Below are positions 1 through 13,817 of a DNA stretch of 64,000 nt, piece by piece. The stretch is from Escherichia coli O157:H7 (GTDB taxonomy: Bacteria > Pseudomonadota > Gammaproteobacteria > Enterobacterales > Enterobacteriaceae): assembly GCF_013167455.1 (NCBI RefSeq), contig NZ_CP038328.1; one strand, 5' to 3'. Position numbers and translations under genes: made by a program. Position 1 is the stretch's first letter; each line of letters begins with the position of its first letter. The notes beneath the pieces are model-generated. The model searched no databases. It was given only the letters and a program-made list of their open reading frames with translations, and was not told where the DNA came from.

Positions 1-170
1 GCGTGGTCACATCCCCCTCCGCGGCAATCGCCTGCATCAGGGTATAAGGGGTTATGGCCACAGGACTACCAAACGGCTGCCAGCCCTCTTTCAGTTTGTG
101 TGTCAGCTTTTCCGCAAGATCTGACGGCGACGCCGCCCTGACAACATCATAATGTTTAATCGACATCGAA
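1..170 (-). CDS. Hypothetical prophage late-region protein, partial (start codon at 170, continues beyond window start)
   Basis: Minus-strand ATG at 170 gives MSIKHYDVVRAASPSDLAEKLTHKLKEGWQPFGSPVAITPYTLMQAIAAEGDV...; open to the window edge. Lies just downstream of a minus-strand terminator. No family recognised. Confidence 0.3.
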
Positions 171-251
171 TTTCTCCCGTGTACAGGAACAGAGTTAAAA
201 AGCCGGAACCGGAATCAAATCACAGGATGACCATCTGCCAGTGGCTGGTCG

Positions 252-285
252 TAAAAAAAAGGCCGCGCCATGCGCAGCCGGAAAT
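252..285 (-). terminator. Intrinsic terminator (7-bp GC stem, T8 run on minus strand)
   Basis: Minus strand reads GGCTGCGC-ATG-GCGCGGCC followed by TTTTTTTT. Confidence 0.5.
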
Positions 286-480
286 AAAGGGATAACGATG
301 ATAGTTTGAGAAAAACAGAAATAACACTTTTGTGGCAAAGCATGGTGCCGGGTGCCTCCCGGTGAATTCAGTACCAGCACCTGAATCCGCGATTATCCCA
401 TATACCTGGTTGCTGATTGCCCCTCCGCACAGGGGGATTCACCATGCAGTAGTATTTTTAATAAACAGTAAACAAAAAAA

Positions 481-648
481 TCAAGCATTATGCAGGCTGT
501 TTCTTTTTATCACCGGCCACAGCAATACCACAATGCCGCAGACCAGCCCCCCATCCGCCAGCACCGACATGATTCTGCTGGTGAAATCCACCATCACCAC
601 CAGAAACAGCAGGAGTGCAGCCACAGCCAGACGCAGTTTTACCGTCAC
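481..648 (-). CDS. Small hydrophobic membrane peptide (56 aa, GTG start overlapping stop of upstream ORF)
   Basis: VTVKLRLAVAALLLFLVVMVDFTSRIMSVLADGGLVCGIVVLLWPVIKRNSLHNA; two predicted hydrophobic helices. Its GTG overlaps the TGA of the TerB-like frame (GTGA arrangement). Confidence 0.4.
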   Translation of the reverse strand: MTVKLRLAVAALLLFLVVMVDFTSRIMSVLADGGLVCGIVVLLWPVIKRNSLHNA

Positions 649-1037
649 AGGTAATTCTCCAGACGAAGACCCAGAACACCGGCAATCTCTTCCAGCACCT
701 TGCGCTCTTCCGGCTCAATTTCGCCGTCTGCCTCCGCAATGGCCACCGCCACATCCAGCACATCTTCCGCTTCACGCGTATCGTGTTTCACATCCTCGAT
801 CTCACGTAACGCCGCACGACGACCAGTTTTAAAGTTCGTATCCAGCTGACCGATAATGGTTGCGCTAATCGCATTAATTTCTGACGTAAACGCGGACAGC
901 GCTGGCTGATTACGCAGTACCTGTTCGATCTTCGCTTTCTAGGAAGCCTCACATTCACCATCTGCACAGGCCACCAGGTATGCGGCGTTAATCACCGCCT
1001 GTGCCAGATCGCGTTTCTCAAACTTTCCTTTTTCCGG
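645..1037 (-). pseudogene. TerB-like (tellurite-resistance TerB / DjlA-N type) ORF interrupted by an in-frame amber codon
   Basis: Frame reads ...KRDLAQAVINAAYLVACADGECEAS-TAG-KAKIEQVLRNQ...VAIAEADGEIEPEERKVLEEIAGVLGLRLENYL. Two A-x-ADG-x-E repeats typical of TerB-like domains. TAG at 939-941 on the minus strand; no ATG start between the upstream TAA and the TAG. Confidence 0.4.
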
Positions 1038-1140
1038 TTAACGTGACACACCAATAACTCTTGTCGAAAAAGCCAGCAAGCAGAAAGACCGGTATTCACA
1101 ACCACCAGCGCGTTTACTGTACTGGCGTGATTTCAGTCAT

Positions 1141-1166
1141 AAAAAAACCCGCCTGGCGACGGGTGT
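1141..1166 (-). terminator. tR'-like intrinsic terminator downstream of the late promoter
   Basis: Minus strand reads CCCGTC-GCCA-GGCGGG followed by TTTTTTT, about 80 bp downstream of the Q stop. Confidence 0.55.
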
Positions 1167-1204
1167 AAAAAATCTTCTAACGTCAGGCATAAAACGCCCA
1201 TCGT

Positions 1205-11191: not shown

Positions 11192-11683
11192 CTACAGATT
11201 GCCGTTCAGTTTTCTGGCCAACTCTTCAATAGATGGAGGTGATACGTAATCCGGATTTTTATTCATAAGAAACTGATTTTCACAGTACAGGCACCTGCTT
11301 TTATGAAAAAATTCATATTCTCTAACCGGGAATGGCTGAAGTATCGATACTATCTTTTGTCCAAAACATTTTGGACAAAGATGCATGATTATGCTGCCGC
11401 CGTTCACGGTTACCTCCTTCGAGTACACAAAAGTTCCCGACTCAAGTTGGCTAAGGATATAACCTTCCGTCTGAGCCTCAAAGTTTTCAAATTCTGCAAT
11501 TTTAGCTTTGAGAGAAGCATTTATTTCTTGATAAGTGCCCACCAGCTCAACGAGAGACACGCATTCGCGCTGAATAGATGCAAGCTTTGAGTTCAGTTCA
11601 CCAATAGCCGCATTTACTTCAGCTTGAGTTTTTGCCTCGTTCATTAGTTTTGCAATCTGGGCGGTTTCACGAATAGCCGTCAT
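11192..11683 (-). CDS. Unknown 163-aa protein: N-terminal coiled coil, C-terminal CxxC...CxxC zinc-ribbon-like motif; counter-oriented within early-left operon
   Basis: MTAIRETAQIAKLMNEAKTQAEVNAAIGELNSKLASIQRE...HLCPKCFGQKIV...HKSRCLYCENQF...; start at 11683 avoids overlap with the exonuclease gene; flanked by 13-bp inverted repeats. Confidence 0.5.
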   Translation of the reverse strand: MTAIRETAQIAKLMNEAKTQAEVNAAIGELNSKLASIQRECVSLVELVGTYQEINASLKAKIAEFENFEAQTEGYILSQLESGTFVYSKEVTVNGGSIIMHLCPKCFGQKIVSILQPFPVREYEFFHKSRCLYCENQFLMNKNPDYVSPPSIEELARKLNGNL

Positions 11684-11884
11684 TGCTGCCGTTAATTCAG
11701 CGATCACATTCAATACTCTTATTGTTGTTGGGGATATCCAGATTAACAAGATCCTTGTTGTTGGGGAATAACGGGGACCACCTCGCCTGACGTGGTAAAA
11801 AGCAGGCACACAACACGAAAGCACACGGCGAGGGACACCATTAAATGGTGGCTTAAGCAATCACGCGAAGCGCAATCTGCCATT

Positions 11885-12229
11885 ATGACCGATGAAATCC
11901 CGTTAGATGATGCACTGTTACAATTGCGGGAATTTATCGACGAAAACTCCGGTGAATTTTTTGTTCAGGTCTGGGGAAATGGAGCCAACTTCGACAACAC
12001 GATTTTGCGCCGTTCATACGAACGGCAGGGGATCCCCTGCCCGTGGCGTTACTACAACGATCGCGATGTACGCACAATCGTTGAGCTGGGGAAAGCCATA
12101 GACTTCGATGCCAGAACGGCTATTCCATTCGAAGGTGAGCGCCATAATGCACTTGATGACGCCCGTTACCAGGCAAAATACGTTTCAGTTATCTGGCAAA
12201 AACTGATCCCGAGTCAGGCTGATTTTTAA
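11885..12229 (+). CDS. DEDDh (DnaQ-like) 3'-5' exonuclease
   Basis: VWGNGANFDNTILRR...GERHNALDDARYQAKY resembles DEDD-family exonuclease motifs; start taken at MTDEIPLDD. Confidence 0.6.
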   Translation: MTDEIPLDDALLQLREFIDENSGEFFVQVWGNGANFDNTILRRSYERQGIPCPWRYYNDRDVRTIVELGKAIDFDARTAIPFEGERHNALDDARYQAKYVSVIWQKLIPSQADF

Positions 12230-12290
12230 TGTTCAACCGTCGCCAGTTGTCGTTGATATTCTGCAACTGGCGCGTTCCGGAGTGATAGCC

Positions 12291-12560
12291 ATGAGCGAAC
12301 AGTACCTGATAACGCTCGACGAGTGGAAACCAAAACGGTTCAGTCTCCCAATAACAAACACTACCCTGGTGAAATACGGAAAACTAGGATACATCGTTCC
12401 AAGACCACAAAAAATTCGTGGGCGTTGGCTGATAGATCGCCGAGCAGTATTTGTTGGGCCTGGTGAAACGGGAATTGCGCCGGAAATTCATACTGGCGAT
12501 GATGATGCACTGAAGGAGATTTTAACTCATGTCACCGAGGCCACGAAAAAACAGCACTGA
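12291..12560 (+). CDS. xis: Excisionase (lambda Xis-like)
   Basis: MSEQYLITLDEWKPKRFS...PRPQKIRGRWLIDRRAV parallels recalled lambda Xis (MYLTLQEWNARQRRPRS...); overlaps int start. Confidence 0.7.
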   Translation: MSEQYLITLDEWKPKRFSLPITNTTLVKYGKLGYIVPRPQKIRGRWLIDRRAVFVGPGETGIAPEIHTGDDDALKEILTHVTEATKKQH

Positions 12561-13647
12561 CGTAGCCGGTCTTTACGAAAAGTTTGATCGCAGAACTGGC
12601 AGAGTTTACTACCAGTATAAAAATCCTGTGACTGGAAAATTTCACGGACTCGGAACAGACAAAGGTAAGGCAGAAAAAATCGCTTCCACAGCCAATCAGC
12701 GAATAGCTGCAGCAGAAGCTGAATATTTCATGCGCAAAATTGATGAAAGTCCGTCAGCAACAAAACGTCGGGGTATCAGATTAAAGGCATGGGTTGATCG
12801 ATATCTGAAAATACAGGACACGCGACTGAAAAATGGAGATATTGCAGCTACAACTCACAAAGAAAAAACTCGAATGGCTGCATACCTGGTTTCCCGTCTG
12901 GGAAACCACCCATTGAAAGAACTGGAAGTAAGAGACTTTGCATTAATACTGGATGAGTGGCTGGATAAAGACATGGTCAGTACAGCGAGAGTAAATCGTG
13001 GATTATGGGTTGATATTTATAAAGAAGCACAGCATGCAGGGGAAGTTCCTCCTGGATGGAATCCTCCGGAGGCTACCCGTAAACCGATCCCTAAAGTAAC
13101 CAGAGCCAGGCTCACCATGGAAGACTGGCAAAAAATTTACAATGCAACGCCTGAAAAACACTTTATCCGTAACGCAATGCTTCTTGCGATTGTTACTGGT
13201 CAGCGCCGTGATGACATTTGCCACATGCGTTTTTCAGATGTGTGGAACGAACACTTGCATATCACCCAGGGAAAAACCGGAATGCGTCTGGCGTTACCGC
13301 TTACACTACGCTGTGATGCCATTGGGATAACGTTAAAAGAAGTTATTGATGGGTGCCGAGACAGAATATTAAGTCCATATCTAATCCATAGTCGGCACCA
13401 GAAACAACCGAAGCCGATGAGTAAAGACAACCTGAGCGACTACTTTGCCAAAGCACGGGATCTGGCTGGGGTAATTCCACCAGCAGGAAAAACTCCGCCA
13501 ACATTTCATGAACAACGCTCTCTATCAGAACGGCTGTACCGTGCACAGGGTATCGATACAAAAACATTACTAGGACATAAAGTCCAGGCAACCACCGATC
13601 GCTATAACGATACTCGAGGTCAGGAATGGGTTAAGTTGGTTATTTGA
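12529..13647 (+). CDS. int: Tyrosine integrase (lambda Int family)
   Basis: 372 aa; N-terminal GRVYYQYKNPVTGKFHGLG vs recalled lambda GYYCYRDPRTGKEFGLG; catalytic-region TGQRRDDICHMRFSD, LLGHK, DRYNDTRGQEW. Confidence 0.9.
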   Translation: MSPRPRKNSTDVAGLYEKFDRRTGRVYYQYKNPVTGKFHGLGTDKGKAEKIASTANQRIAAAEAEYFMRKIDESPSATKRRGIRLKAWVDRYLKIQDTRLKNGDIAATTHKEKTRMAAYLVSRLGNHPLKELEVRDFALILDEWLDKDMVSTARVNRGLWVDIYKEAQHAGEVPPGWNPPEATRKPIPKVTRARLTMEDWQKIYNATPEKHFIRNAMLLAIVTGQRRDDICHMRFSDVWNEHLHITQGKTGMRLALPLTLRCDAIGITLKEVIDGCRDRILSPYLIHSRHQKQPKPMSKDNLSDYFAKARDLAGVIPPAGKTPPTFHEQRSLSERLYRAQGIDTKTLLGHKVQATTDRYNDTRGQEWVKLVI

Positions 13648-13697
13648 CAAACACCATATGGAATATCCGTCACCATCTCAGGAAAAAAGTGTTGTAA

Positions 13698-13817
13698 AAT
13701 GCGTGGCCTAGTTTTGGGGAAACGTTTTGGAGAGATTTTGGAGAAAGGAAAAAATTGAATAAATTCAAAATCCTGAAAGTGTCCCGCCTTATGAATAAAA
13801 AGGTGGAACTCGAATGA
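13698..13817 (+). other. Prophage-host junction: arm-type direct repeats TTTTGGAGA x2 and probable att core reconstituting the potB 3' end (stop overlaps potC ATG)
   Basis: Open frame ends TGA overlapping ATG of potC at 13814; TTTTGGAGAgaTTTTGGAGAaa at 13725-13748; no full potB upstream. Confidence 0.4.

Follow-up and report, generated by a model that had tools for sequence, protein, structure and literature searches.

The first 13,803 positions of the stretch analysed here – 64,000 nucleotides of Escherichia coli O157:H7 DNA (contig NZ_CP038328.1 of assembly GCF_013167455.1), referred to below as the window – are almost certainly the right-hand 13.8 kb of the defective lambdoid prophage Sp6. 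Nucleotide alignment of positions 1-15413 with the genome of strain Sakai gives 99.968% identity, with 5 mismatches and 0 gaps, and the Sakai record (NC_002695.2, 1541611-1590033) labels the same DNA 'prophage Sp6; lambda-like phage'. Sp6 is ~48.4 kb long, and we take it to correspond to part of CP-933O of strain EDL933. The initial annotation, made by eye, had described a mosaic prophage whose modules match different reference prophages (lambda, Rac and Qin); the whole region is collinear with a single known prophage, Sp6, at the identity given above. The region comprises the half of that prophage that serves regulation, replication and integration.

Megablast comparison of window positions 1-14500 with every complete E. 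coli genome in RefSeq showed that 275 of them carry 80% or more of this sequence in one place, and the match is 100% in many O157:H7 strains. Gene coordinates were taken from the RefSeq annotation of a genome that matches the window at 100% identity throughout 1-14500 (hereafter the identical genome), and the RefSeq gene models were translated and compared with lambda and with the K-12 prophages Rac, Qin and DLP12. The resulting features, including open reading frames (ORFs) and predicted regulatory sites, are listed in Table 1.

Sp6 is already known – published, named and experimentally studied – and the present finding adds nothing new to its description; descriptions of the prophage go back to the Sakai genome sequence, and its defects and mobility were characterised in 2009, so the region has little weight as a discovery. 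Its defects, spontaneous excision and transfer to K-12 were described by Asadulghani et al. 2009 (PMC2669165), who found general recombination, portal, head, minor-tail and host-specificity functions to be defective or lacking, as was the repressor (without a peptidase domain), and scored Int, Xis, replication, packaging and lysis as intact. In that study Sp6 excises spontaneously with no rise in circular Sp6 DNA upon mitomycin C treatment, and is transferred at low frequency to K-12, where it integrates at the same locus; no particles were found from Sp6 lysogens (PMC2669165).

The prophage arm does fill the range 1-13700 given by the initial annotation, and the right end lies ~100 bp further, at the attachment (att) core identified by comparison with the empty K-12 site. 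This 12-bp core is duplicated, with one copy at the 3' end of potB and the other 10 bp ahead of the potC start codon. At attL, within the final potB codons and ~48.4 kb from attR, the core reads TGAATAAGAAGG, as it does at the empty K-12 site. Insertion swaps out the last four potB codons and changes the C-terminus of the protein from VELE to ATEIDN. The location is that published for Sp6, potC/potB (PMC8190617), and the Sakai annotation of Sp6 begins 11 bp beyond the potC start. A tRNA scan of window positions 1-20000 detected no tRNA genes, and this is therefore not a tRNA-targeting element.

The prophage runs off the start of the window, as had been supposed, with ~34.6 kb more of it to the left. 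In the identical genome this left arm contains the lysis, head and tail genes and the second att site that the initial annotation had suggested should be sought upstream, in the order lysis, terminase, portal, capsid and tail genes, followed by nleL, espN, IS2 and effector remnants, and espK, and ending with attL at potB. Tail gene I is shortened there, with nleL directly after it, and there is no J or tail-fibre gene; effector genes and insertion sequence (IS) remnants replace the tail genes that would follow K and the shortened I. The late genes and the effector cargo (espX7/nleL, espN and espK), all outside the window, are seen in Sakai as well.

Table 1. Features of the Sp6 arm in the window. 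Positions are those of the window; aa, amino acids; sRNA, small RNA; HTH, helix-turn-helix; CDS, coding sequence. A dot in the strand column marks a feature given without strand.
Feature	Position	Strand	Basis or remark
SASA-family sialate O-acetylesterase gene, nanS-p type, 5' end (55 codons)	1-166	-	first late-region gene; Sakai ECs_1527
Strong terminator-like hairpin after STnc100 match	279-261	-	terminator scan
STnc100-family sRNA match	307-473	-	Rfam RF02076, 101.6 bits vs gathering score 47, full length
DUF3927 small membrane-protein gene	481-648	-	cargo slot, interval between Q and lysis genes
TerB/TciA-like pseudogene, internal stop	645-1007	-	cargo slot, interval between Q and lysis genes
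Terminator-like hairpin with T-run, 81 bp downstream of Q	1147-1164	-	terminator scan
Late antiterminator Q, lambda-Q family, 273 aa	1245-2066	-	Pfam PF03589
RusA Holliday-junction resolvase	2063-2437	-	Pfam PF05866; 40% to DLP12 RusA
DUF968 gene (YdfU-like, HNH-like)	2450-3499	-	Pfam DUF968, 252.8 bits; PHROG 96 HNH endonuclease
Conserved ORF, 92 aa, function undescribed	3501-3779	-	PHROG 1212; no Pfam family
Terminator-like hairpin after hokD	3878-3861	-	terminator scan
hokD CDS	3947-4102	-	Hok Pfam PF01848, 83 bits
mok ORF, overlaps hokD	3947-4159	-	Mok annotated in Sakai
sok/leader region	4097-4271	-	Rfam sok RF01794, 114 bits vs gathering score 59
nin-region-like run of small ORFs	4348-7682	-	DUF551, Ea22-like, DUF4752, DUF4406, HTH-like 105-aa ORF, DUF1627, others
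Lambda-P-type helicase loader, short form, 153 aa	7716-8177	-	Pfam PF06992 and PHROG 109 'P-like helicase loader'
Replication initiator with DnaT DNA-binding domain	8170-9207	-	Pfam PF17948; PHROG replication-initiation families
YdaT, CII-equivalent regulator, CP-933P type	9276-9701	-	~90% to PDB 8bt1 over 140 residues
Candidate YdaT operator TTGATTTTCATGAATCAT	9691-9708	-	on ydaS/ydaT junction; one mismatch to TTGATT-N6-AATCAA
YdaS, Cro-like HTH protein	9685-10008	-	Pfam YdaS_toxin and P22_Cro; 84% to Rac YdaS
Right-operator-like region, three 13-bp palindromes TAGG-N4-GCCTA	10040-10052, 10066-10078, 10091-10103	.	pattern search
RacR repressor, 158 aa	10133-10609	+	92% to K-12 RacR
Left-operator-like region, two RacR-type palindromes	10705-10717, 10730-10742	+	just downstream of racR
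DUF1391 gene	10925-11077	+	92% to Qin YdfA, 84% to Rac YdaF
Opposite-strand ORF, 171 aa, function undescribed	11192-11707	-	Pfam: sub-threshold match only
Exonuclease ('ExoVIII') remnant, last 402 bp of ~2.4-kb gene	11828-12229	+	full length in vB_EcoS-813R8
Excisionase Xis	12291-12560	+	PHROG 629 excisionase, E = 5e-26
Lambda-type tyrosine integrase Int	12529-13647	+	arm-binding PF09003, 75 bits, and PF00589, 66 bits
attR core TGAATAAAAAGG	13792-13803		right prophage end; three-way comparison with empty K-12 potB/potC junction

The immunity region had been read as a RacR/YdaS/YdaT-type switch. This description holds for RacR and YdaS, both close relatives of their Rac counterparts (Table 1), but not for YdaT, which has only 31% identity to that of Rac and instead is of the type found in CP-933P. 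At the nucleotide level, positions 9678-10912 are 86% identical to Rac over 1.25 kb, with the racR-ydaS intergenic DNA 94% identical, and the homology ends at 9678, at the ydaS/ydaT junction. The switch itself is by these comparisons a hybrid, in which a CP-933P-type YdaT is joined to Rac-type RacR and YdaS. In CP-933P an operator site is likewise present at the ydaS/ydaT junction, and the published YdaT operator, TTGATT-N6-AATCAA, is placed there (PMC9986795); the candidate site in Sp6 reads TTGATT-N6-AATCAT. The CP-933P repressor is, however, PaaR2 and is accompanied by the paaA2-parE2 toxin-antitoxin pair (PMC9986795), whereas Sp6 has RacR and neither of these.

Palindromes of the form TAGG-N4-GCCTA are strongly concentrated around racR. 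Eight matches (both strands counted) are present in the 64-kb window as compared with 0.16 expected, and all eight are accounted for by five sites, three of them in the ydaS-racR interval and the other two just past the racR 3' end, a 3+2 layout that Sp6 shares with Rac. The five sites agree with the RacR operator consensus (T/A)TAGGC-n3-GCCTA(T/A) (PMC9638921). A version of the pattern with a 5-nucleotide spacer gave 0 matches and was rejected, TAGG-N4-GCCTA having the right spacing. The right-operator palindromes overlap a promoter-like site on the minus strand facing ydaS (10065 to 10036; promoter scan), and the left-operator palindromes overlap a near-consensus promoter sequence, TTGACA-17-TATAGT (10718-10746), which faces the DUF1391 gene, the exonuclease remnant, xis and int. 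RacR itself matches no Pfam family and has no detectable S24 peptidase domain, which fits the report of an Sp6 repressor lacking that domain and of no mitomycin C effect on circular Sp6 DNA (PMC2669165).

The replication genes that follow differ from those of Rac, which has the DUF1376 initiator YdaU and the DnaC-like loader YdaV, whereas Sp6 has an initiator with a DnaT domain and a lambda-P-type loader. No match of the initiator to either lambda O or Rac YdaU was found, and a search of the P, initiator and Xis sequences against the lambda, Rac, Qin and DLP12 proteins returned nothing at E ≤ 1e-3. The loader assignment is carried by family profiles: P matches PF06992 (Phage_lambda_P) at 58.9 bits (cutoff 26) over profile positions 50-161 of 162, and PHROG 109 over positions 74-235 of 236, and it is without the N-terminal third of the family profile. 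A pairwise alignment of P with lambda P gives 26% identity (E = 3e-7), and the Sp6 loader has likewise been called lambda-type previously (PMC2669165). One further family, PHROG 15931 (482 positions), covers the initiator with profile positions 1-347 and P with positions 331-482, from which it follows that the two are annotated as, or truly are, one protein in some phages; here the two genes overlap by 8 bp and are in different frames.

Within the initiator gene are nine exact copies of CGTGAC on one strand within 328 bp, with 10-bp phasing, in two clusters at 8752-8798 and 9022-9079; three tandem copies of ATCTGT adjoin the first of these (stretch 8731-8798). These iterons are kept in the initiator gene of phage vB_EcoS-813R8. 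By analogy with the lambda origin, which lies inside gene O, the CGTGAC clusters constitute a putative replication origin. In the nin-like run downstream of P the DUF1627 protein is 57% identical to Rac YdaW, and the ORF at 5775-6092 has no Pfam family. Rac further differs from Sp6 in that its Int and Xis belong to other families (XisR is DUF1233) and its attachment site is ttcA.

The initial annotation had listed Q, P, Xis and Int as lambda-like. Q, P and Int do fall into lambda families and Xis is borderline, but with amino acid identities of only 26-35% the four are not modules derived from lambda. Q matches PF03589 at 164 bits (cutoff 26.7; lambda Q itself scores 193 bits) and matches PDB 7ubm (E = 1e-39); the same family also takes Qin YdfT, with DLP12 QuuD going to PF06530, and Q is 39% identical to YdfT and 32% to lambda Q. 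Xis scores 23.2 bits against the lambda Xis family (PF07825, Exc; cutoff 23.0), and its pairwise match with lambda Xis is marginal (29% identity, E = 0.008). For Int, 351 residues align with lambda Int, at 35% identity. Sp6 Q is 66 residues longer, and P 80 residues shorter, than the lambda counterparts. What Sp6 shares with lambda is a functional layout – int-xis, early-left operon, operator-flanked repressor, cro-like and cII-like genes, initiator, P, nin, Q and late genes – but DNA similarity is limited to two patches of 31 and 90 bp in the ea22-like gene, and Sp6 has no lambda-type N, cI, O, exo/bet/gam or nin genes.

Downstream of Q, the terminator-like hairpin at 1147-1164 is a candidate tR' that would be read through by Q-modified RNA polymerase; scanning of this region revealed terminator-like hairpins only and no pR'-like consensus promoter. 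The STnc100 match is flanked by the esterase gene on one side and by the cargo genes next to Q on the other. In Stx phages it is this region that holds the stx genes.

Relationships with Qin are evident in the block from Q to hokD. The DUF968 gene is YdfU-like, as initially described, with 82% amino acid identity to YdfU over its full length, and positions 2450-3796 are 83% identical to Qin DNA. The description of hokD was equally apt: the gene is 98% identical to K-12 hokD in amino acids and 97% in nucleotides, and the surrounding DNA (3853-4116) is 97% identical to Qin, with homology ending 58 bp short of relE. The gene described as rem-like, by contrast, has no relationship to rem, and the ORF beside the DUF968 gene matches a different Qin ORF. 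Searching the window with K-12 Rem by tblastn gave a best E-value of 1.3, and nucleotide comparison found no counterpart in the window of the Qin DNA that holds rem. The 92-aa ORF is 79% identical to an intact ORF of K-12 Qin (NC_000913.3, 1644309-1644584, minus strand), and in three comparisons its ratio of nonsynonymous to synonymous substitution rates (dN/dS) is 0.18-0.22, indicating that it is a real gene. The Qin counterpart, of 92 codons, lies between ydfU and rem and has no annotation in the MG1655 record; a homologue is named 'toxin to Rem' in one phage record.

The mok ORF is 70 codons in length, shares the hokD stop codon and starts 57 bp upstream of the hokD start; judged by its parts, the segment 3861-4271 is a complete hok/mok/sok type I toxin-antitoxin locus. 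An Rfam isrK match at 3857-3938 (27.7 bits, gathering score 50) was taken as chance. Qin thus shares with Sp6 the DUF968 gene (ydfU), the 92-aa ORF, HokD, the Q family (YdfT) and DUF1391 (YdfA), but it has rem and relBE (the latter upstream of hokD), both of which Sp6 lacks; Sp6 has rusA between Q and the DUF968 gene and keeps the mok/sok leader on hokD. The immunity region of Qin is of DicA/DicC type and that of Sp6 of RacR type. RusA is the sole match in the comparison with DLP12, and a PADLOC scan of ten uncharacterised ORFs gave 0 defence-system matches.

Along the region, the match to the reference prophages changes at sharp boundaries, taking levels of none, 83%, 86% and 97%, and the best references of the segments differ, being Qin, Rac, CP-933P and a potC-integrating phage. 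Among phage records, coverage of the region reaches 46% at most, with 92% identity. In vB_EcoS-813R8 (ON470619.1) the module next to potC, comprising the exo 3' end, xis, int and att, is 99.55% identical to that of Sp6, the block from Q to hok runs collinearly with 86% identity, and the initiator iterons are the same. This phage differs in having a DicC-annotated gene opposite a cI-annotated repressor, together with dicB, in place of RacR/YdaS, as well as a full-length exonuclease gene (2442 bp) and another nin region. The patchwork noted by eye is therefore real and is the usual lambdoid one, but three module labels were inaccurate: rem, YdaT as Rac-type, and the 'lambda-type' genes as lambda-derived. 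As a calibration, naming modules by eye was right on architecture and wrong on rem, overstated the relatedness to lambda and overlooked the hybrid nature of the immunity region.

The window departs from Sakai at five positions in 15.4 kb, all of them non-coding. One (441) lies in the STnc100 match, two (3935 and 3940) are 7-12 nucleotides past the hokD stop in the hok 3' untranslated region, and the remaining two (10081 and 10095) belong to the operator region between ydaS and racR, where 10095 falls within the third RacR-type palindrome, a perfect one in Sakai. With 12.4% of the sequence non-coding, the chance that all five would be so placed is ~3e-5 if they are independent and 2e-3 if they represent three events. 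Gene conversion from sister prophages in short patches may have produced them, or they may reflect selection on regulation, and they could represent lineage-specific tuning of the prophage.

The clustering of these differences, resembling that of short conversion patches, and the finding that O157 lambdoid prophages recombine among themselves (PMC2669165) would both suit an origin of the Rac- and Qin-like segments in recent recombination with a Rac or Qin resident in the same chromosome, as opposed to inherited architecture. We consider this unlikely, however. Most of the DNA in common with K-12 Rac and Qin matches them at only 83-86%, far below what a recent exchange would leave, and the same Q-to-hok order is present at 86% identity in an independent phage, vB_EcoS-813R8.

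It is very improbable that the region belongs to an intact, fully functional temperate phage that looks cryptic only through the position of the window boundary. Intact ORFs are present for Int, Xis, the repressor, the Cro-like and CII-like proteins, the initiator, P and Q, and Sp6 excises and is transferred to K-12 (PMC2669165). The early-left operon is nonetheless degraded, with just the DUF1391 gene, the opposite-strand ORF and an exonuclease gene reduced to its last 402 bp; the TerB gene is a pseudogene, tail genes have been replaced by effector genes and IS remnants, and head, minor-tail and host-specificity functions are defective or absent, with no particles from lysogens (PMC2669165). 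The remaining alternative, a previously undescribed mosaic assembled from lambda, Rac and Qin modules, as the initial annotation implied, can draw on the coverage of at most 46% by any phage record and on the varying best references, but has next to no probability given the collinearity with annotated Sp6, the occurrence in 275 complete genomes, the experimental study of the element (PMC2669165) and essentially no nucleotide similarity to lambda.

Taken as the right arm of Sp6, the region suggests the following course of events. Integration would be carried out by the lambda-type integrase at the 12-bp core at the potB 3' end. Lysogeny would be maintained by a RacR-type repressor without an autocleavage domain acting at the three racR-ydaS and two downstream operators, shutting the divergent early promoters. 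Upon derepression, the rightward promoter would give rise to YdaS (Cro-like), YdaT (CII-equivalent), the DnaT-domain initiator with its internal iterons, and the short P-type loader, and transcription would then proceed through the nin-like genes, the hok/sok addiction locus, the DUF968 gene, rusA and Q. Q would let RNA polymerase pass the terminator downstream of its gene and enter the late genes, which lie to the left of the window. The leftward operon, reduced to the DUF1391 gene, the exonuclease stump, xis and int, would presumably serve integration and excision.

Several points weigh against this reading. The promoters, terminators, origin and operators are predictions from consensus or homology. 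No N-type antiterminator was found and a strong terminator-like hairpin follows hokD, so that the scheme does not account for the passage of early transcription to Q. The Rfam sok match lies on the hokD strand and thus does not give the exact position of the antisense RNA gene. Finally, the window is not identical to Sakai, and with one of the five base differences inside an operator a slight regulatory difference between the strains is possible.

The position of Sp6 may have consequences for its host operon. potC (13814-14608) is separated from int by a spacer (13648-13813) in which a simple promoter and terminator scan found no promoter-like or terminator-like site on the plus strand. potCD are parted from potAB and the potA promoter by ~48 kb of Sp6, and int and potC share one orientation. 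We propose that potCD may be transcribed from within the prophage. It is a further and doubtful step to suppose that spermidine uptake in O157:H7 depends upon transcription exiting the prophage via int, and hence is tied to the RacR switch.

To the right of the prophage the window is core chromosome, extending from potCD via mfd, ptsG, the fab genes and rne to the flg genes. In the potD-cobB spacer (15652-15806), ymfA and ycfZ – present in K-12 – are skipped in the O157 genome; both are kept in the host flank included in the phage record ON470619.1. The SraB sRNA (49421-49589, minus strand) and the RNase E 5' untranslated region element (51439-51775, plus strand) are at their expected core positions and are ordinary. 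A second mobile element, with a P4-like integrase, an Icd-like gene and a RepA-helicase, lies outside the window ~5 kb upstream of potA, to the left of roxA/pepT/potAB, and is presumably Sp7 of Sakai; two mobile elements are thus located <10 kb apart in the potABCD neighbourhood.

Sp6 is a mosaic in the manner of all lambdoid phages, real but ordinary. Its switch, putative origin and possible effect on potCD are of some applied interest, since the prophage carries, outside the window, type III secretion system effector genes and is among the O157 prophages that are still mobile.

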